DNA of 64,000 nt, from NCBI GenBank assembly GCA_038065395.1, contig JBBTRB010000003.1:85800-149799 (forward strand), read 5' to 3'. A program made the translations under genes and the position numbers. This document shows, piece by piece, positions 4,054 through 62,804 of the stretch. This DNA comes from Patescibacteria group bacterium (lineage in GTDB: Bacteria; Patescibacteriota; Minisyncoccia; Phycocordibacterales; PALSA-1337). Below the pieces are notes generated by a model. It ran no database searches and was not told where the DNA came from. It saw only the letters and a list, made by a program, of their open reading frames with translations. Position 1 is the first letter of the stretch, and every line of letters starts with the position of its first letter.

Positions 4054-4109
4054 GTAACTAGTAAAAAGTAACTCGAAAGATGCTTGTGATTTTCTAGTTA
4101 CGAGTTACT
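4054..4109. repeat. divergent copy of the GTAACTMG palindromic motif element (related to the 99-bp repeat at 41321 and 42049)
   Basis: Contains gtaactagtaaaaagtaactcg and ttctagttacgagttac, the same inverted half-sites as the 99-bp repeat. It lies directly upstream of the csaA-like start. Confidence 0.4.
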
Positions 4110-7642: not shown

Positions 7643-8650
7643 TTATACGGGCAACATATCCCGCACCCCCTCCGCATTTAGTGTATACGCCCTGACGAAT
7701 GAGTCGTCTACATGAGCATACAGTACACCTTCGTCTTTCGTCGTCTGTACGAATTGACTTGCGAAAGTTATCGTCCGAGCTTCTGTATCACGGATGAATG
7801 GTTCGGGAGAGACCCATTCTATGATTCCCTTCTCGTAGTTGTATATAAAAAGTCCTACAGAAAATATTCCGTATAAGGTCTGTGTGCCAACCTTCTTGTT
7901 CGCTTCTCGTCCATTCATAATACCCACAAGTCTCCCCTCTCCGATATCGATGAACTCCCTAGAGAAAAGTGGTCCTGGAGATGCATGTCCCCCGATCCAC
8001 GGGATAGCGTGTTCTTTGGGATGGAAAAGTATGCCACCGAACTTCCACGGTTTCCCCATATCTTCGGCAACGGCAAGTCTCACTACAGAATACGTAAAGT
8101 CACTTTCCTTCTTGCTGGATTCGACCAGGTTGAGACGAATACCATTCGTATTCACCGGAGCAACCGACAACTCTTTGGCACCTCCGATAGAATCTGCAAG
8201 GAGTGTGGGCTCGGTCATCTCGAGCGAATCCAGATCTCTCCCAACCGCATGACCGAGATGGATCTTGTTCTTGCTGTGATGTGCATGGTCGATCAGTGGC
8301 AAGGTGAAGTAGAGATGCAAAAAGCCACTAGCATGATCGACCCATATATCCGGATCTTCCAGACCGATGAAGTCGAGGTTACCCTTGAGACTCTCAGTCA
8401 CTTCGGCTTCGTGTTTGATCTCGAGTCTCTCTCCTATCTCGAAACTTCCCTGAGCGTTCTTCTTGATCTTATGGAGCTCGCTCCTGTCGACATATCCACT
8501 GACTGACACATCACCTTCTCTACTGGTAATGCAACGGATCACACCTTCCTGATGATCTGTTCGTGGATCGAGTGCGATGGCCATGACATGAGTGAAGGTC
8601 GAGTCTGTCTGCACTACTTTGCCTTCGTGTTGGATGTAGGGAGTGTTCAT
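7643..8650 (-). CDS. hypothetical beta-propeller protein, possibly GH130/DUF377 glycosidase-like
   Basis: 335 aa: GLEDPDIWVDHASGFLHLYFT resembles the EDPR..Y.M.YT segment of GH130-family enzymes. This is a weak assignment. Confidence 0.4.
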   Translation of the reverse strand: MNTPYIQHEGKVVQTDSTFTHVMAIALDPRTDHQEGVIRCITSREGDVSVSGYVDRSELHKIKKNAQGSFEIGERLEIKHEAEVTESLKGNLDFIGLEDPDIWVDHASGFLHLYFTLPLIDHAHHSKNKIHLGHAVGRDLDSLEMTEPTLLADSIGGAKELSVAPVNTNGIRLNLVESSKKESDFTYSVVRLAVAEDMGKPWKFGGILFHPKEHAIPWIGGHASPGPLFSREFIDIGEGRLVGIMNGREANKKVGTQTLYGIFSVGLFIYNYEKGIIEWVSPEPFIRDTEARTITFASQFVQTTKDEGVLYAHVDDSFVRAYTLNAEGVRDMLPV

Positions 8651-15468: not shown

Positions 15469-15525
15469 TTGCTGACCCTCTTCGCAGGCGCCACGTTCAA
15501 TACTTGTCACCCTCAGTTAATATAT

Positions 15526-15905
15526 GTCATCCCCGCGAAAGCGGGGATCCAGGATCATACCACTGACATGATAGATCCTTCCATTGAGGATTAGACTTCT
15601 CGATCAATTCAAGTTTCCACTTCCTACTCCACTTCTTAAGCTGTTTTTCTCTTGTCAAAGCAGCATTCACATCTATGGTTTCTTCAAAATATACTAATTG
15701 AGATATATCATATTTTTCAGTGAATCCAGGTATTATTTTGTGTATATGTTCGTATATACGACGTTCGAGATTATTGGTTACTCCAATATATAATGTTCCG
15801 TTTCTTTTGTTAGTGAGAATATAGATGTAGTAACTCATACCTACGATTGTAGCTAACTAACATACGGGATGCTAATCCTGGATTCCCGCTTTCGCGGGAA
15901 TGACA
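15526..15905. mobile_element. GIY-YIG gene bounded by 31-bp inverted hairpin repeats (candidate autonomous member of the hairpin-TIR repeat family)
   Basis: Left TIR 15526-15556 tgtcatccccgcgaaagcggggatccaggat; right TIR 15875-15905 atcctggattcccgctttcgcgggaatgaca, its reverse complement with two T/C changes. The subterminal aggatcaY is shared with the MITE-like copies at 35259 and 62618. Confidence 0.5.
15527..15838 (-). CDS. GIY-YIG nuclease family protein (YhbQ/COG2827-like URI domain)
   Basis: 103 aa: YIYILTNKRNGTLYIGVTNNLERRIYEH is the GIY-YIG core. The last 9 codons and the stop lie inside the left hairpin repeat. Confidence 0.7.
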   Translation of the reverse strand: MSYYIYILTNKRNGTLYIGVTNNLERRIYEHIHKIIPGFTEKYDISQLVYFEETIDVNAALTREKQLKKWSRKWKLELIEKSNPQWKDLSCQWYDPGSPLSRG

Positions 15906-18195: not shown

Positions 18196-20721
18196 TTATT
18201 TGAGATCTCCCCAATTCGCACCGACCGCCATCTCTGAGGTCAGTGTGATCCCTGCGATATCCTTGGGGTCAATGATCGATTCCATGATCGAGCGGATTTT
18301 CTCCCCTATTTCGTGTGCACGATCTTCGCGGATCTCATAGACCAGTTCGTCGTGCACCTGGAGTATCGGAAATGCCACATCAGTGAGACCTGCCTCCTTG
18401 AGCCAGCTGTCTACCTTGATCAATGCCAGCTTTACCACATCGGCTTCTGTCCCCTGGATCGGGGCATTGAAAGCCATGCGTTCGGCCTGTGCACGAATAT
18501 ACGGAATCTTGGAATTGATCCCCTCAAAATATCGACGACGACCAAAGAAGGTTTCTGTATACCCGGTACGAGCGGCGTCAGCCTTGACCTGGTCAATGTA
18601 TGCGGCGAGTGTAGAAAATGTCGCGAAATAATCATCCATGAATTTCTGAGCTTCGGCGCGATCGGTGCCGAGATTTTGTTTGAGCGCCATAACGCCCATG
18701 CCGTACAGGATGCCGAAGTTGATGACCTTGGCCTTGCGACGCATATCAGAAGTCACCTCGGTCAGTGGAACTTTGAATACCGAACTTGCAACCGACGTAT
18801 GGACATCTGTGCCATTTTTGAAAATATCGATCAACGTTTGATCCTTGGAGAGAAATGCTGCGATACGCAACTCGATCTGAGAATAGTCGAGTGACACCAG
18901 AGCAAAACCTTTCTCAGCTACGAACGCTTTGCGAATAGCTTTGCCCAGCTCGGACTTCACCGGGATATTTTGCAGATTCGGGTCGAGAGATGCCATACGA
19001 CCTGTCGTTGTCCCTGCGGGAATAAAGTCCGAATGCAGACGGTTGTTGCTATCGAGTTGTGGTGGGATAGCATCGATATAGGTAGAGAGGAGCTTTTGTA
19101 GTTCGCGATATTCGAAGATCATCGGAATGATCGGGTGCAGGTCACGGAGCTTCTCGAGTTCTGACTCACGTGTCGAACGTGCTCCCCCACTCGTCTTCTT
19201 CATGTTCTTGCCGACGAGTCCGAGCTTGTCGAACAGGATCTCACCGAGCTGTTTGGGTGAATTGATATTGAACTCAACCCCTGCGGCTGCAGTGATGTTT
19301 TTCTCCAAGAGTGCAAGTTCCTTGTGATATTTCTTGGAAAGATCTGCCAAGAATACTTTGTCGATCTTGACCCCACGCTCTTCCATCCGGTGCGTGATCG
19401 GGAGCAGGGGTAGCTCGAGTGTTTCGTATACGGTGCGGAGATTGCGCCTGTCGAGCTCTTCGAAGATCATTTTTTTGGCGACTTCATAGTCGTCAGTATT
19501 AGCGAAATTCAATATGTCTTCGAGTTGAGGATTGGTGGCATTGGAGTTTATGAGCCATAGTGCCACTCCGGTTTTCTCGATCTCTTCCTTGGAAACAAGA
19601 GGTGATTCTGCACCGCGGATCCCCGCCTGCGCGGGGATGACAGAAAATATGTCACCTTGCCCTCCCGTTTTGTCATCCCCGCGCAGGCGGGGATCTGCGC
19701 TCCCGACAGTAACTACACTCATTGCACTACTCTTCTTCCCTGCCAAGACATTTTCCAACCTTTGCCCGAGAGTTCGGAATTCCAACACATTCCACAACGC
19801 CTTTACCTTCTTGAGGTCAACGTTCTCTTTGAATGTCTTTTCTGGGAAGACGAAATCGATCGGTGCATCACGACGGATAGTCGCCAGCATCTTACTGAAC
19901 ATCGCCTCGTCTTTGTTATCTTTCAGGAGTTGTACGATACGTGGCGTGATCCCGGCTTTGATGAATGCATCTTCATGTCCTGCCTCAAGTTCCACATACA
20001 TATTCTCGAGTGTTCCGAATGAGGTGATGAGGATGGTCGCCGTCTTCTCGCCGACACCTTTGATCCCAGGAATATTGTCAGACGGATCGCCGCGAAGTCC
20101 TTTGTAGTCAGGGATGAGCTCTGGTCCAAAGCCAAATCTTTCCTGTACGGCTTTCTCGTCGTACATGATCGTATCTTTGATCCCCTTCTTGAGAGTGAAT
20201 ACTTTGACCTGCGTACCCGAGATCAGTTGCAACGTATCCATATCGCCAGAAGCGATGATGATCTCTAAATCTTCATCCGACCCGCGGATCCCCGCCTTCG
20301 CGGGGATGACAGGGTTCTTTTCCTCGCTTCCTGAATCTTGAATCATGAATCCCGCATTCTTGAGCTGCTCCACGATCGTCCCCAACATATCGTCAGCCTC
20401 AAAGCCTGCTTTGTCATAGATGGGAATATTGAGAGCCTCGAATACTTGCCGAGACGTATTGAGCTGACGGATCAGAGCATCATCGGTCTTTTGTCTACCC
20501 GCTTTGTATTCTTTGAAGACTTCATGTCGATGAGTCGGCCCTGCCAAGTCGTACGCAGCCACTATATAGTCTGGTTTGAGATCCTCAATGGTCTTGATCA
20601 GCATCGTTGAGAGTCCATATAGAGCTCCTGTCGGTTCGCCTTGTGCAGTCGAAAAGTCTGGCAATGCATGATATGCACGATGCAATATGGCATGCGAGTC
20701 GAGCAAAATGAGTCTTTTCAT
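18196..20721 (-). CDS. polA: DNA polymerase I
   Basis: 841 aa with an N-terminal 5'-3' exonuclease (GFEADDMLGT) and the C-terminal family A polymerase motifs (DYSQIELR, RRKAKVINFGILYG, QVHDELV). It carries repeat-encoded in-frame insertions. Confidence 0.9.
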   Translation of the reverse strand: MKRLILLDSHAILHRAYHALPDFSTAQGEPTGALYGLSTMLIKTIEDLKPDYIVAAYDLAGPTHRHEVFKEYKAGRQKTDDALIRQLNTSRQVFEALNIPIYDKAGFEADDMLGTIVEQLKNAGFMIQDSGSEEKNPVIPAKAGIRGSDEDLEIIIASGDMDTLQLISGTQVKVFTLKKGIKDTIMYDEKAVQERFGFGPELIPDYKGLRGDPSDNIPGIKGVGEKTATILITSFGTLENMYVELEAGHEDAFIKAGITPRIVQLLKDNKDEAMFSKMLATIRRDAPIDFVFPEKTFKENVDLKKVKALWNVLEFRTLGQRLENVLAGKKSSAMSVVTVGSADPRLRGDDKTGGQGDIFSVIPAQAGIRGAESPLVSKEEIEKTGVALWLINSNATNPQLEDILNFANTDDYEVAKKMIFEELDRRNLRTVYETLELPLLPITHRMEERGVKIDKVFLADLSKKYHKELALLEKNITAAAGVEFNINSPKQLGEILFDKLGLVGKNMKKTSGGARSTRESELEKLRDLHPIIPMIFEYRELQKLLSTYIDAIPPQLDSNNRLHSDFIPAGTTTGRMASLDPNLQNIPVKSELGKAIRKAFVAEKGFALVSLDYSQIELRIAAFLSKDQTLIDIFKNGTDVHTSVASSVFKVPLTEVTSDMRRKAKVINFGILYGMGVMALKQNLGTDRAEAQKFMDDYFATFSTLAAYIDQVKADAARTGYTETFFGRRRYFEGINSKIPYIRAQAERMAFNAPIQGTEADVVKLALIKVDSWLKEAGLTDVAFPILQVHDELVYEIREDRAHEIGEKIRSIMESIIDPKDIAGITLTSEMAVGANWGDLK
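19617..19695. repeat. inverted pair of hairpin repeats inside polA (CAGG-loop variant)
   Basis: ggatccccgcctgcgcggggatgaca (19617-19642) and tgtcatccccgcgcaggcggggatc (19671-19695). Read in the polA frame they give ADPRLRGDDK...VIPAQAGIRG. Confidence 0.8.
20286..20311. repeat. single hairpin repeat inside the polA 5'-3' exonuclease domain (GAAGGC-loop variant)
   Basis: ggatccccgccttcgcggggatgaca; in the polA frame it encodes VIPAKAGIRG. Confidence 0.8.
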
Positions 20722-30944: not shown

Positions 30945-32048
30945 TTAGCGGTTCATCGGCATCGCGAGATACATGAAGGTCTGATCCCCTGACACAGGTC
31001 GGATGACCATAGGACGATTCGGCCCACTGATCTGGAACGATACACTGTCAGCGTCGATCGACTGGAAACAATCGGCGATATATTTGCAGTTAAAATTGAT
31101 CTCTACCTTATCCCCTGTCAAAGCCGCATCTATGGTCGTACTGTTCTCACCAATATCACTGTTCTTGGTCTGAATTTCGAGCGTCTTGTTCTTGGGATCA
31201 ACGATCAGTCGTATCTGGTTGAACTTATCAGAAAATATGTTGGATATCTTGAGACTATTGAGGATGTCTTGCTTCAGGAATACCGCTTCGGTAACGAAAG
31301 ATTTTGGGATGATCTGTCGATAATCCGGGAAAACTCCGTCAGTAACGCGAGATACGAGATATATTCCCTTCGACTCGAAAGATATGAGGTTCTTGTTCAT
31401 TCGAACATCTGATGTACCCCCTATCACCTCCAAAGTTCTTACCAAGTCTGAAATATTCTTGAAAGGAACCAGGATATCATTCACATGGAGAGATTGTGGT
31501 GCTTTTATCTTCTTTTCCGCCAAGCGGAATGAGTCTGTGGCCGCAAACACGACGTTTTCCTCGTCTCGGTATATATACACACTCGAAAGTTCTGGTTTTA
31601 CACTCGATACCGAGGCGCTATACCATACCGATCGCAAACCTTTGACGAAAAGCTCTGTAGGCAAAGGAGTCGCATCCTCTGTTACCCGAGGAATACTCGG
31701 AAAATCCTCAGAAGGAACGGTTTTGATGGTGCATTTTGATTTTGCAGATGTTACGAGCATGTTTCCTGATACAAGCTCGAGAGTCACTGTAGGGTTCTGG
31801 TCAGGAAGCTGAGAAATGAAAGCTGAGATAACCTGAGCTGGTATAGCGACCACCCCTTCCCCTTCTACCTTGGCAGGAATAGTGACTTCGATACCAATGT
31901 CGAGGTTGGTTGCCCGTAGAACAACTTCGCCTTTCTTGGCCTCAAAAAGGATACAAGAAAGAACGGGTAGAGTTGCATGCTTGCCAGAAATCTTCTCTAC
32001 TAAGGAAATCGATTCTTTGAGTTTCTTTGTTTGAGTTTCTATTTTCAT
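30945..32048 (-). CDS. dnaN: DNA polymerase III subunit beta
   Basis: 367 aa with the three-domain clamp; MKIETQTKKLKESISLVEKISGKHATLPVLSCILFEAKKGEVVLRATNLDIGIEV. Confidence 0.85.
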   Translation of the reverse strand: MKIETQTKKLKESISLVEKISGKHATLPVLSCILFEAKKGEVVLRATNLDIGIEVTIPAKVEGEGVVAIPAQVISAFISQLPDQNPTVTLELVSGNMLVTSAKSKCTIKTVPSEDFPSIPRVTEDATPLPTELFVKGLRSVWYSASVSSVKPELSSVYIYRDEENVVFAATDSFRLAEKKIKAPQSLHVNDILVPFKNISDLVRTLEVIGGTSDVRMNKNLISFESKGIYLVSRVTDGVFPDYRQIIPKSFVTEAVFLKQDILNSLKISNIFSDKFNQIRLIVDPKNKTLEIQTKNSDIGENSTTIDAALTGDKVEINFNCKYIADCFQSIDADSVSFQISGPNRPMVIRPVSGDQTFMYLAMPMNR

Positions 32049-32286
32049 AAGTATTCTTTATATTAAACAAAACTTTTCGTTATTAGGGATGTGGAAAAGT
32101 GGATAACGTGATAAAAAGGCTCAACGGTAAGGTCAAATGAGAAGATCTATTCTGGGTATAACCTGAAGATCTTCGGGTGGTGTGTGAGTAGGTTCTCATG
32201 GTGGTGAAGTTATACTATTCTTATTCCTGATTTGTTCCGTACTTATTATCGACTTTTCCTTGAGATAACCACAGGTTAATCCACAG
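32049..32286. promoter_or_regulatory. putative oriC segment: DnaA-box cluster in the dnaA-dnaN gap
   Basis: tgtggaaaa, agtggataa, ataaccaca and taatccaca (each 1-2 mismatches from TTATCCACA/TGTGGATAA), plus the AT-rich stretch tctttatattaaacaaaac. Confidence 0.5.
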
Positions 32287-33618
32287 TTATATCATCGACC
32301 GGATCTGTGTGACCTCCTGAGTCAGGACACTGTCGGACTTGAGTTCTTCTTTGACCTTCTCGTAGGAGTGGATGACGGTAGTATGGTCTCTTCCTCCGAG
32401 TTTCTCCCCTATTGAAGGGAAAGATATGCCAAAGTCTTCTCGGAGGATATACATGACCATTTGTCGTGGGCGTACGATCTCTTTGCGGCGAGTCTTGTCG
32501 TATATGCTTTGTTCGTCGATATTGTAGAAATCAGACACGATCTTGACGACTTCCTTCACCGAGACCATCTTTTTTGGTCGAGTGTTGTTCTTGAGGATGT
32601 TCTTGATCTCATTGAGGTTGAGCTCTTTGTTCTTGAGCTGTGTCTGGCAGGCCACGATGTTCACTACTCCCTCTATCTCACGGATATTGTCCTGGATCGA
32701 AGAAGCGAGGAACTCCATGAGCTCCAAAGGAAGGGTTATGTTGTGTGTGGCGCATTTGGTACGGACGATGGCCATACGAGACTCTTGGTCTGGTTCGGGG
32801 ATATCGACCGACATGCCGGCATTGAAACGGCTACGAACACGCTCCTCGAGGCCAGGAATGACGTTGGGGTGTTTGTCAGATGAGAAGATGAGCTGTCTCC
32901 CTGAGTCTTTGAAGGTATTGAATAGGTGGAAGAATTCTTCTTGGAATTTCTCTTTGCTCGAGAAGAACTGCACGTCGTCCATGATGACTACGTCGTATTT
33001 GCGATATTTCTCCTTGAAAGCCTGAGCCTTGCCTTCTTGGAGGGCACTGAGGAACTCGGAACCAAATCGTTCTGAAGTGAGGTAGTAGATCTTCTTGTTC
33101 GGGAATGCAGTCTTGATCTGATTGCCGATGGCTTGGATAAGGTGTGTTTTGCCACGACCAGGACCTCCATATATGAGGAGTGGGTTGTACATCTGGCCGG
33201 GACTCTTGATGACGGTCTGAGAGGCGGCATGAGCGAGCTCATTGAATGGTCCAACAATGAAATTTTCGAAGGTATAGCGAGGGTTGAGGTTGTTCTCCTT
33301 GTCGATATAGAAATCCTGCAGTGGCATGGCCATCGTCGGCATCATGACGGGCTTCTTGCCACGAGAAGAGTCGCCTTTTGAGCCGGATTCTTTCTCGATA
33401 ACATACTCGAGAGCTCTTACCTGTTCATTTGTCTGGCGCAAAATACGCAAAATCGAGTTGTGGAACTTCTTGACCAGCCATTCTTGAGTGAAAGAGTTAG
33501 GAACTCCGAGATATACTACCCCCTCTTCTTCTTTGATGATGCGAGTTTCTTTGAACCACGTGGAGAAGTTAGCCTGCGAAACAGCAGTTTCTATTTCTAC
33601 GAGAGCAGTCTGCCACAT
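32287..33618 (-). CDS. dnaA: chromosomal replication initiator protein DnaA
   Basis: GGPGRGKTHLIQAIGN Walker A, the DnaA signature and a C-terminal HTH; start taken at MWQTALVEIE. Confidence 0.9.
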   Translation of the reverse strand: MWQTALVEIETAVSQANFSTWFKETRIIKEEEGVVYLGVPNSFTQEWLVKKFHNSILRILRQTNEQVRALEYVIEKESGSKGDSSRGKKPVMMPTMAMPLQDFYIDKENNLNPRYTFENFIVGPFNELAHAASQTVIKSPGQMYNPLLIYGGPGRGKTHLIQAIGNQIKTAFPNKKIYYLTSERFGSEFLSALQEGKAQAFKEKYRKYDVVIMDDVQFFSSKEKFQEEFFHLFNTFKDSGRQLIFSSDKHPNVIPGLEERVRSRFNAGMSVDIPEPDQESRMAIVRTKCATHNITLPLELMEFLASSIQDNIREIEGVVNIVACQTQLKNKELNLNEIKNILKNNTRPKKMVSVKEVVKIVSDFYNIDEQSIYDKTRRKEIVRPRQMVMYILREDFGISFPSIGEKLGGRDHTTVIHSYEKVKEELKSDSVLTQEVTQIRSMI

Positions 33619-33747
33619 TTTGGAGTAGTCATGCATAAAATAGGTGCTATAAGTATATACCTGTTTATAGTTCTGCAAACTTGTGGAGGACGTAAAGTTA
33701 TGTTGATAAGTTGGGGACACGAAGTTTTGTTGTTTATTATGTCATTC

Positions 33748-33916
33748 GCGCCGGCGCAGGAGGCGTGTTGTCTCAACCCACGATCGACTTTGCTCACAAG
33801 AACTGAACTGTTCGCAAAGTCGTCTTTTCTCGGCGACGTCTAAGGTAGTCATTATTATCCTTGTGGACACGTCGCCTGCGAAGAGGGTTTCGTCAACACG
33901 CCTCCTGCGCCGGCGC
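33748..33916. repeat. three-stem structured element, copy A (23-bp perfect terminal inverted repeats GCGCCGGCGCAGGAGGCGTGTTG)
   Basis: Outer stem 33748-33770 with 33894-33916. The inner hairpins GACTTTGC...GCAAAGTC and GGCGACGT...ACGTCGCC are homologous to copy B at 49657-49808. Confidence 0.6.
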
Positions 33917-33951
33917 TTGCCTTTTTAGCAAAATAATGTAATATTCTACAC

Positions 33952-34086
33952 ATGTCAGTCACGTATCAACCAAAGAAACGCAAGCGCGCAAAGACACACG
34001 GCTTCCGTGTGCGCATGAAGACCACCTCAGGTCGCAAGGCTATTGCTCGCCGTCGTGCGAAAGGTCGCAAGCGCCTCGCTGTATAA
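33952..34086 (+). CDS. rpmH: 50S ribosomal protein L34
   Basis: Manual translation [44 protein letters not shown] (44 aa); below the ORF-track size cutoff. Confidence 0.8.
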
Positions 34087-35258: not shown

Positions 35259-35446
35259 TTGTCATCCCCGCGAAAGCGGGGATCCAGAGGCAAGGGCGTG
35301 GCTACTGACTTATATCTATATCATCACAAACTATTAGGGACCATCCCTGTAATTGCATGCCGAACCTGTCACGTTCAGCGAAGATATAGATTAATCGGAC
35401 TATATACTGGAAGTGATCCTGGATCCCCGCTTTCGCGGGGATGACA
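35259..35446. mobile_element. MITE-like element: hairpin TIRs around a 125-bp ORF-less core
   Basis: tgtcatccccgcgaaagcggggatccagagg ... atcctggatccccgctttcgcggggatgaca; the core is about 78% identical to the reverse complement of the 62618-62804 core. Confidence 0.6.
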
Positions 35447-41320: not shown

Positions 41321-41419
41321 AAGTGTAATTGGAACCTAGTAACTCGTAACTAGAAAAACACACACATGGCTTTTTCTAGTTACAAATTTCTTTTTACGAG
41401 TTACGGTGTTCATGTGATT
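41321..41419. repeat. 99-bp repeat, copy 1 (inside the split VirB4 gene)
   Basis: Character-by-character identical to 42049-42147. Internal inverted half-sites tagtaactcgtaactag / ctagttac...cgagttac; contains stops in the VirB4 frame. Confidence 0.85.
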
Positions 41420-42048: not shown

Positions 42049-42147
42049 AAGTGTAATTGGAACCTAGTAACTCGTAACTAGAAAAACACACACATGGCTT
42101 TTTCTAGTTACAAATTTCTTTTTACGAGTTACGGTGTTCATGTGATT
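42049..42147. repeat. 99-bp repeat, copy 2 (between the PrgI-like gene and the VirB4 N-terminal ORF)
   Basis: Identical to 41321-41419. Confidence 0.85.
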
Positions 42148-49656: not shown

Positions 49657-49808
49657 GCAGTATATCCTATTCCTCACCCACGATCAGCTTTGCTCACACT
49701 ACCTAAACCGTTCGCAAAGCTGTCTTTTCTCGGCGCCACCTTACAGGGATTATATATTCAATGTGGACGTGGCGCCTGCGAAGAGGGATCGGAACAGGAC
49801 ATACTGCC
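49657..49808. repeat. three-stem structured element, copy B
   Basis: Outer stem ggcagtatatcctattcctc / gatcggaacaggacatactgcc. Inner hairpins AGCTTTGC...GCAAAGCT and GGCGCCAC...GTGGCGCC. The single-stranded blocks cccacgatc, tcttttctcggcg and cctgcgaagaggg are shared with copy A. Confidence 0.6.
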
Positions 49809-60104: not shown

Positions 60105-60194
60105 CGTCATCCCCGCGAAGGCGGGGATCTGCGCACAAGAATAGACAAATATTAACAGACTAGGTCATGGATCCCCGCCTTCGCGGGGATGACA
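60105..60194. repeat. bare inverted pair of hairpin repeats (GAAGGC-loop variant) with a 39-bp spacer
   Basis: cgtcatccccgcgaaggcggggatc (60105-60129) and ggatccccgccttcgcggggatgaca (60169-60194). Confidence 0.8.
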
Positions 60195-62617: not shown

Positions 62618-62804
62618 TGTCATTCCCGCGAAAGCGGGAATCCAGGATCACTTCCAGTATAGAGTTGATGCAAGTCATATAAACAATGAATGTGAAGGGT
62701 TCAGCATTTACTCACAAGGATAGTTTATAGTAGTTTGCGATTATATAAATATAAGTAAGTAACCATGCCCTTGCTCCTGGATTCCCGCTTTCGCGGGAAT
62801 GACA
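62618..62804. mobile_element. MITE-like element: hairpin TIRs (T-variant) around a 125-bp core, inverted relative to the 35259 copy
   Basis: tgtcattcccgcgaaagcgggaatccaggat ... tcctggattcccgctttcgcgggaatgaca. Confidence 0.6.

Follow-up and report, generated by a model that had tools for sequence, protein, structure and literature searches.

A single in-frame hairpin repeat of the Ssn-related motif family in the 5′-nuclease domain of DNA polymerase I from a Patescibacteria group bacterium

Introduction

How did a short hairpin repeat come to lie in-frame inside the gene of DNA polymerase I, and how has the gene been able to keep it? The question is raised by a 64,000-nt stretch of DNA from a Patescibacteria group bacterium (assembly GCA_038065395.1, contig JBBTRB010000003.1, positions 85,800-149,799), hereafter called the window, whose polA gene contains a single repeat copy encoding the peptide VIPAKAGIRG in the 5′-3′ exonuclease domain. 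An initial annotation, made from the sequence alone, had described this copy and suggested that it may be a decayed older insertion. Here, we show that the copy belongs to the family of the Ssn-related motif (SRM), and that it was very probably fixed in polA after the split from the nearest relatives and has persisted in a permissive loop.

Hairpins of this kind have been described under several names. The Neisseria NTS (CGTCATTCCCGCGMAVGCGGGAATCYRG) was reported by Chenal et al. (2025; PMC11893778), together with the broader SRM, which flanks genes of small single-domain GIY-YIG nucleases, SsnA. The Ssn proteins, about 94 aa in length, require the hairpin in single-stranded form for binding and cleave a few nucleotides upstream of it, and the C right after the palindrome is the nucleotide most crucial for binding (PMC11893778). 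The same hairpins are found in the CGTC-tagged REPs (Di Nocera et al., 2013; PMC3733652), among which the family CGTC-1, equal to Neisseria dRS3 and Rickettsia conorii RPE-6, has a CGTC tag, an 8-bp stem starting with AT, a 4-nt loop, and the 3-nt tail CCA. Its dimers mostly carry the tags outside (HH) and rarely inside (TT) (PMC3733652), and singletons are an ordinary state in this repeat family (PMC3733652, PMC11893778). In 2013, the CGTC REPs were regarded as having no dedicated enzyme (PMC3733652); this conclusion has been answered by the 2025 Ssn study, whose authors only hypothesise an IS-like (IS200/IS605-like) origin (PMC11893778).

In-frame inserts of the SRM type, including the peptide VIPAKAGI and inserts in DNA polymerase I, have already been documented (PMC3733652, PMC11893778). 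CGTC-1 singletons inside the real genes RC1048 and RC1080 of R. conorii encode VIPAKAGI, and DNA polymerase I of Rhodopseudomonas palustris carries a CGTC-3 dimer at residues 338-367 (PMC3733652). CGTC REP inserts occur in excess in DNA synthesis and repair genes, which are sometimes the sole decorated open reading frames (ORFs) of a genome (PMC3733652).

Results

A hairpin repeat in-frame in polA

On the coding (minus) strand, the single copy (the solo copy) reads TGTCATCCCCGCGAAGGCGGGGATCCGC from 20311 to 20284; the interval 20286-20311 reads GGATCCCCGCCTTCGCGGGGATGACA on the plus strand of the window, and the coding-strand equivalent is TGTCATCCCCGCGAAGGCGGGGATCC. Its stem consists of 8 perfectly matched base pairs (ATCCCCGC/GCGGGGAT), in which 20300-20307 pairs with 20288-20295, and the loop GAAG occupies 20296-20299. 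The DNA fold of the solo copy gave this 8-bp stem with -12.3 kcal/mol and a z score of -2.7. The corresponding RNA hairpin in the mRNA had a centroid energy of -16 kcal/mol, and its 91-nt context was no better than shuffles (z score of -0.36). The peptide VIPAKAGIRG corresponds to PolA codons 138-147 (20281-20310), in-frame within polA. The sequence, coordinates, and location in the 5′-3′ exonuclease domain given by the initial annotation were borne out by ORF and domain reading, which confirmed that the solo copy is a real and correctly located feature, one hairpin-repeat copy in-frame in polA. The same 841-aa sequence is recorded on four contigs in two archives and carries the annotation of DNA polymerase in a Patescibacteria-group metagenome-assembled genome (MAG).

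The solo copy is a member of the SRM family (Neisseria NTS/dRS3, CGTC-1 REP, and Rickettsia RPE-6), an oriented hairpin of 28-30 nt. The published SRM search motif, HGTCWYN(0-2)YYVSBRHN(0-5)WNVSBRGN(0-2)RNCYNB (PMC11893778), was matched by all 11 repeat copies of the window, including the solo copy, compared with a mean of 0.33 in shuffled windows. Three copies matched the NTS consensus at 27/27 positions, and in the stem of the others, a compensatory change had turned T-A into C-G. The (C/T)GTCAT tag, the ATYCCCGC stem, the 4-nt loop, the C after the palindrome, and the NTS-ssnA-NTS architecture described below are common to the window copies and the SRM/NTS system. The window copies differ from that system in their host from Patescibacteria (Candidate Phyla Radiation, CPR), the terms "Patescibacteria" and "candidate phyla" being absent from the main text of PMC11893778, in the C-G pair that replaces T-A in the stem of most copies, and in the intragenic share, which is 3/11 here and 2% for NTS in N. 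meningitidis (PMC11893778). With CGTC-1, they share the 8-bp stem starting with AT, the 4-nt loop, the 3-nt tail, the HH arrangement of four of the five dimers, the occurrence of both singles and dimers in-frame within genes, the identical octapeptide VIPAKAGI, and the decoration of DNA polymerase I. They differ from CGTC-1 in the phylum and in the insertion site, the 5′-nuclease loop, as well as in the tag and the solo tail considered in the Discussion; the R. palustris dimer is located at the position equivalent to a second insertion in the window PolA, in the inter-domain linker, and not at the 5′-nuclease loop. The initial annotation was right that the hairpin repeat is real, but recognised neither the known family nor the associated nuclease gene in the window. 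A scan of the whole window at the Rfam gathering threshold reported four tRNAs only and no family for the hairpin.

Comparison with PolA orthologs and syntenic loci

To place the insertion, we used an alignment of 120 PolA orthologs with 62-79% identity to the query, in which the window PolA is P0001. The loop between the helix ending in ...GTIVEQLK and the strand LEIIIASGDMD ranged from 0 to about 75 residues across the 120 orthologs. In the six closest orthologs (P0002-P0007, 71-79% identity), the loop had 5-8 residues, e.g., QLIHPKVKHVEELEIII, and no SRM peptide was present anywhere in the protein. At the DNA level, the segment measured about 75 nt in the window vs 15-24 nt in the loci L024 and L026. 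The count of about 26 extra residues in the initial annotation holds against Taq, but the net gain over the closest orthologs is 18-21 residues, and DEDLE is ancestral there (KDEELE or HVEELE). Within the lineage-specific segment 20278-20352, only 20281-20310 (VIPAKAGIRG) is derived from the repeat; the non-repeat part includes three tandem GATTCAN heptamers, which possibly arose from slippage. A similar RIQDSGSRIQDS was observed in the same loop of ortholog P0090.

No SRM was found in the syntenic 22-kb loci (TsaE-polA-holA...SpoU-Fpg) L024, L025, L026, and L149. In the genome containing L149, whose PolA (P0005) has 75% identity, an SRM-ssnA-SRM unit occurs elsewhere on the contig (L150), the polA locus is free of SRMs, and the PolA loops are short; this genome thus represents an SRM-bearing relative with an empty polA site. 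The short loops in the close orthologs and the SRM-free syntenic loci indicate that the insertion is derived, and these comparisons place its origin after the divergence from the nearest relatives sampled, in a lineage in which the repeat was active. The solo copy is thus a genuine in-frame repeat insertion absent from the closest orthologs, and repeat-free relatives carrying the same residues were not found.

A length-variable loop that accepts repeats

SRM peptides were detected in six of the 120 orthologs, only at the 5′-nuclease loop and the inter-domain linker. At the loop, P0001 has the solo copy, P0107 a dimer, and P0053 a solo copy in the opposite orientation, while P0001, P0012, P0031, and P0037 have insertions at the linker. 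The loop dimer in L027 and the opposite-orientation solo copy in L028 (P0053) occupy different nucleotide positions. As positions, orientations, and copy numbers differ, the loop hits in at least two other lineages are independent events. The same loop of P0013 and P0036 (aligned to window aa 124-148) contains long insertions encoding SPFEKGGGR and PLFQRGTLQRDS, apparently translated from another family of repeats.

All intragenic SRM arms in the PolA orthologs (P0001, P0012, P0031, P0037, P0053, and P0107) were in two frames only: the tag-first arms encode VIPAxAGI, and the reverse arms encode D(P/S)(R/G)(L/F)R(G/R)(N/D)D. This restriction, seen over few independent events (at least 5), may reflect peptide selection or insertion-phase bias. 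In all but one of its six frames, the repeat can be read without a stop codon, and survival in-frame therefore needs little more than a length divisible by three.

An AlphaFold2 model built with a 76-sequence alignment had a mean pLDDT of 83 and only two long low-confidence coils, residues 130-148 and 332-372. Both had a pLDDT below 50 and correspond to the two SRM-bearing segments, and the flanks of 130-148 were well modelled. The coil 130-148 lies between helix 109-122 and strand 152-157. E108, D110, and D111 at the helix start align to E117, D119, and D120 of Taq, respectively, and D160 and D162 after the strand align to D142 and D144; the catalytic residues of PolA were invariant across the aligned orthologs. 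From the usual alpha/beta topology, and not from a measurement, the loop would be situated at the end of the sandwich away from the metal and active site. It is predicted to be disordered and appears to be a permissive surface site of hypervariable length.

The repeat family within the window

Searching the window for the pattern ATCCCCGCNNNCGCGGGGAT with at most two mismatches gave 19 strand-matches at 11 loci, where shuffles expect 0.02. With a covariance model built from the copies, the 11 copies scored 51-60 bits, and the solo copy, which is intact, scored 51.1 bits. Behind them, the best site of the window reached 14.8 bits (8553-8594); its head is TGTCAT and its tail ATCCA, but it forms no hairpin and was judged to be a chance match. 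The 8-bp stem and the 4-nt loop were present in every copy, and GTCAT and the C after GGGGAT were invariant across the alignment of the 11 copies.

Ten of the copies form five inverted pairs (Table 1), and the copy in the 5′-nuclease loop of polA is single. The tags are outside in four of the five dimers and inside only in the dimer of the polA linker. Three copies are wholly intragenic, and one more runs over the stop codon of ssnA; apart from this overlap, polA was the only window gene seen with intragenic SRMs, and the other three pairs are intergenic. At 27/27 positions, the arms of the element at 62618-62804 agreed with the NTS consensus of N. meningitidis. Each of the two 187-nt elements has one stem variant on both arms (ATCCCC/GGGGAT vs ATTCCC/GGGAAT), pointing to concerted or compensatory change.

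The GAAG loop that the initial annotation had noted in both the solo copy and the 60105/60167 pair was also evident in the copy alignment. Over 32 nt, however, the window copy nearest to the solo copy was the linker arm 19615-19642 (29/32 identical), compared with 27/32 for the 60105/60167 pair, and the tail CCGCGG was shared by the solo copy and this linker arm and by no other copy. The closest match and the exclusive tail suggest that both polA insertions come from one repeat sub-lineage, possibly through local spread. As the initial annotation had proposed, the solo insertion is separate from the linker insertion, which is located in another loop, at a distance of about 580 nt, and has a different tetraloop.

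Exact matches to GTCATYCCCGCGMAVGCGGGRATC were observed on at least 120 stretches of IMG/VR viral contigs, some of them arrays of 5-13 copies, and the repeat motif is thus common on phage or prophage DNA as well.

Table 1. Positions of polA, the repeat copies, and the associated elements in the window
Feature	Position	Strand	Remarks
polA, 841 aa	18196-20721	minus	Pfam 5_3_exonuc_N (E 1.5e-43), 5_3_exonuc (E 6e-25), DNA_pol_A (E 1.3e-134)
Solo SRM / CGTC-1-type REP hairpin	20284-20311	minus	TGTCAT tag, tail CCGC
Lineage-specific loop segment, codons G124-S148 (GFMIQDSGSEEKNPVIPAKAGIRGS)	20278-20352	minus	25 codons
Three tandem GATTCAN heptamers (GGATTCATGATTCAAGATTCAGG)	20329-20352	minus	encode GFMIQDSG; non-repeat part of the insert
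SRM dimer (TT) in the inter-domain linker of PolA	19615-19698		arms 19615-19642 (minus) and 19671-19698 (plus)
NTS-ssnA-NTS unit	15525-15905		SRM arms 15525-15552 (plus) and 15878-15905 (minus)
ssnA-like single-domain GIY-YIG gene, 103 aa	15527-15838	minus	TGA stop inside the SRM tag
Intergenic element of 187 nt with HH SRMs at its ends	35260-35446
90-nt intergenic HH SRM dimer	60105-60194		GAAG loops
Second copy of the 187-nt SRM-bounded element, intergenic	62618-62804		about 80% identical, opposite orientation

The ssnA unit and other repeated elements

One of the inverted pairs encloses a 103-aa ORF, in which Pfam detected GIY-YIG at residues 3-76 (E value of 1.6e-17) and otherwise only a weak, overlapping T5orf172 (E value of 8.9e-4). 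A PDB sequence search with this protein gave no match, and NCBIfam gave only a sub-threshold group-I-intron endonuclease. At least 7992 GIY-YIG homologs were found at E ≤ 1e-5, and the best 120 (61-77% identity, 92-145 aa) were from Patescibacteria, Ignavibacteriae, Margulisbacteria, and Deltaproteobacteria. The C-termini of many homologs extend into SRM-like sequence, e.g., GFPLSRE*, GSPLSRG*, and WIPAFAGMT. On these sequence grounds, the ORF probably encodes the cognate SsnA homolog of the window SRMs.

The NTS-ssnA-NTS unit was absent from the syntenic SpoU-Fpg spacer in the loci of four relatives, and the spacer of L026 is only 8 nt long. Its absence there indicates that the unit also moves, and the unit appears to behave as a mobile one. 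The insertion junctions and target-site duplications of the unit could not be defined, as the relatives have the 8-nt spacer or another repeat that is mostly missing in the window. In the relative bearing P0005, the SRM-ssnA-SRM unit (L150, 3934-4323) adjoins TraG/TraC/PrgI-like type IV secretion genes and may ride on a conjugative element.

The window also contains other repeats. Full copies of a repeat of about 112 nt (ACCCACGATC...GTGGCGCCTGCGAAGAGGG) were found at 33776-33887 and 49676-49787, with two ungapped segments that are 85% and 80% identical. A 22-nt fragment of this repeat (15476-15497, minus) lies beside the ssnA unit, and a full copy is present in the SpoU-Fpg spacer of L024 and L025. 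A perfect inverted repeat of 23 bp (33748-33770 and 33894-33916) surrounds the copy between dnaA and rpmH. No Rfam family was above threshold at the sites of the 112-nt repeat. A perfect direct repeat of 99 nt (41321-41419 and 42049-42147, 728 nt apart) is related to short TTTTCTAGTTAC... repeats at 4090 and 41372.

Position relative to the replication origin

In the origin region of the window (30945-34086), synteny with L026 and a reading of the rpmH translation, not a domain scan, gave dnaN (30945-32048) and dnaA (32287-33720), both on the minus strand, and rpmH on the plus strand (from 33955); the minimum of the cumulative GC skew is at about 30-34 kb, and the origin is placed at about 33.7-34 kb. 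From this origin position, polA is co-oriented with the leftward fork. The strand of the solo copy that SsnA recognises (TGTCAT...) is the lagging-strand template, which is transiently single-stranded. This placement fits a single-strand mechanism, and as it concerns one solo copy, it is an anecdote only.

Discussion

The results point to an SRM copy that became fixed in polA of this Patescibacteria (Paceibacterota) genome after the split from the nearest relatives and persisted there in a permissive loop. The SRM proliferates in genomes encoding the small GIY-YIG single-strand DNA nuclease SsnA; in the mechanism we propose, either SsnA itself or host repair acting on SsnA-cut single-stranded DNA would spread the repeat. 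Several properties would then have favoured persistence of the copy: the net length change preserved the reading frame, five of the six repeat frames are free of stop codons, the frame used gives the small Pro/Ala/Gly-rich peptide VIPAKAGIRG, and the landing site would be a disordered surface loop of hypervariable length away from the active site. Most likely, the insert is translated and close to neutral in function, a case of "selfish DNA in a protein".

Several points weigh against this account. The nearest relative available has 79% identity, and the insertion is therefore not finely datable; the nearest relatives have diverged too far in the loop for a clean junction between empty and filled site, or a target-site duplication, to be defined at polA. 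About 10 of the approximately 25 lineage-specific residues come from the repeat, and the upstream 14 codons with the three GATTCAN heptamers are unexplained by it. In detail, the first tag base departs from the CGTC of CGTC-1 in 10 of the 11 copies, including the solo copy, which have TGTC, CGTC occurring only at 60105 and the later SRM motif admitting A, C, or T at this base, and the tail of the solo copy is CCG, unlike the family's CCA, which is found in seven of the 11 copies. The route of mobilisation through a single-strand process, by SsnA or by host repair, is hypothetical. To our knowledge, no transposition chemistry has been described for Ssn, and we know of no GIY-YIG nuclease that acts as a transposase.

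The initial annotation offered a different history, in which the solo copy is the remnant of a REPIN-like SRM pair, older than the linker pair, whose second arm and spacer decayed or were deleted. Many REP singletons of P. fluorescens are indeed remnants of HH dimers (PMC3733652), 10 of the 11 window copies are paired, about 41 nt upstream of the solo copy within the insert are otherwise unexplained, and a weak site resembling the 3′ half of the repeat (GAATGCGGGATTCATGATTC) lies at the 5′ edge of the insert. However, a filter-free covariance-model scan at E ≤ 10 found no second copy within 20200-20450, so that the degenerate partner which the initial annotation suggested looking for in the flanks did not appear. 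In scans with position weight matrices, the best half-site, GAATGCGGGATTCATGATTC at 20359 (minus), had a log-odds score of -0.7, compared with 26-34 for true copies, and ranked 20th among the non-copy sites; it also partly overlaps the conserved codons L-K-N-A. Smith-Waterman alignment of the 41-nt upstream flank with every SRM-bounded element of the window gave no more similarity than shuffles. The solo copy itself is undecayed, with a perfect stem, a score of 51 bits, and a match to the SRM motif; under the tags-outside geometry, a partner would fall in the conserved DEDLEIIIASGD codons, and P0053 (L028) likewise has a clean solo copy in the same loop. With the three kinds of scan negative or at the level of noise and the copy intact, the decayed pair is unsupported, and we consider it unlikely.

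The recurrence of SRMs in PolA could instead point to a selected function, with the solo copy serving as an SsnA cleavage mark against incoming homologous single-stranded DNA, as in the Neisseria transformation-restriction model, as an mRNA hairpin tuning polA, or as a useful loop. Such a role would agree with the hits at two sites in several lineages, with the enrichment of REPs in replication and repair genes, sometimes the only decorated ORFs (PMC3733652), with the restriction of intragenic SRMs in the window to polA besides the ssnA stop overlap, with the use of two of five open frames by the arms in the orthologs, with the placement of the SsnA-recognised strand on the lagging-strand template, and with the stable RNA hairpin. 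It is nevertheless very unlikely, as SRMs occur in only 6/120 orthologs and are missing from the closest relatives, their position, orientation, and copy number vary among lineages, the predicted disordered loop takes unrelated insertions of 0 to about 75 residues, the RNA context is no better than shuffles, and recurrence is expected from a selection filter acting on permissive loops. We would likewise give little credence to the broader proposal that the recurrent hits, at the same two loops and in two frames in several Paceibacterota lineages, together with the excess in repair genes, reflect targeted insertion or selection. In its targeted form, Ssn-dependent mobilisation might be coupled to single-stranded DNA on the lagging-strand template at genes which, like polA, are close to the origin and co-oriented; in its selective form, SRMs within genes might be SsnA "restriction marks" that keep transformation from replacing alleles of core replication genes, in a setting of DNA-scavenging bacteria with reduced genomes. 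That the solo copy is a chance resemblance or an assembly artefact is scarcely credible, even though the source is a MAG: the 28-nt family motif is matched where 0.02-0.33 matches are expected per window, the copy is in-frame with intact flanks, sequencing reads are longer than the repeat, four contigs in two archives carry the identical protein of 841 aa, and inserts of this kind recur in that loop in independent assemblies of other lineages.

Insertion and persistence of an SRM copy in polA also invite comparison with other palindromic elements. Like the Rickettsia palindromic elements (RPE-1 and others; references 13, 14, and 49 of PMC3733652), which are in-frame palindromic inserts in essential genes that spare function, the solo copy is a palindromic repeat in-frame in a conserved protein gene and absent from orthologs. 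Among these elements, RPE-1 is longer than the REP-sized RPE-4 and RPE-6, and only RPE-6 and RPE-4 are CGTC hairpins (PMC3733652). With the REP/REPIN-RAYT systems of the IS200/IS605-type Y1 transposases, the window copies share short GC-rich hairpins, inverted pairs flanking their own enzyme gene, a presumed single-stranded DNA substrate, and apparently the lack of target-site duplications. They differ in the tag, which is (C/T)GTC instead of GTAG, and in the flanked gene, which encodes a GIY-YIG nuclease and not an HUH/Y1 transposase; these two features separate the window repeats from REPIN/RAYT, and as regards a Y1 transposase, only the flanked gene was considered. A full-text literature search for the encoded peptides (IPAKAGI, RFRGND, PAFAGMT, and others) returned no papers, VIPAKAGI being found in a supplementary table of PMC3733652, and a search on palindromic elements, in-frame insertions, and Candidate Phyla Radiation returned nothing specific.

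The solo copy reveals no new mechanism, and what it adds is modest: a host in Patescibacteria (CPR), the 5′-nuclease loop as a recurrent landing site, evidence of recent mobility from empty sites, and an intragenic share of the window copies that stands against the low one of N. meningitidis. For annotation, VIPAKAGI and DPRLRGDD in Patescibacteria proteins are to be read as footprints of SRM/CGTC-REP, not as lineage-specific motifs, and masked in alignments and phylogenies. For protein engineering, the insertions mark two naturally permissive sites of a family-A polymerase, the helix-to-strand loop of the 5′-nuclease and the inter-domain linker. The finding extends the host range of the Ssn/SRM system to a Patescibacteria (CPR) genome, where the empty-site comparisons show that both the repeat and the NTS-ssnA-NTS unit have been mobile over about 20-25% protein divergence.

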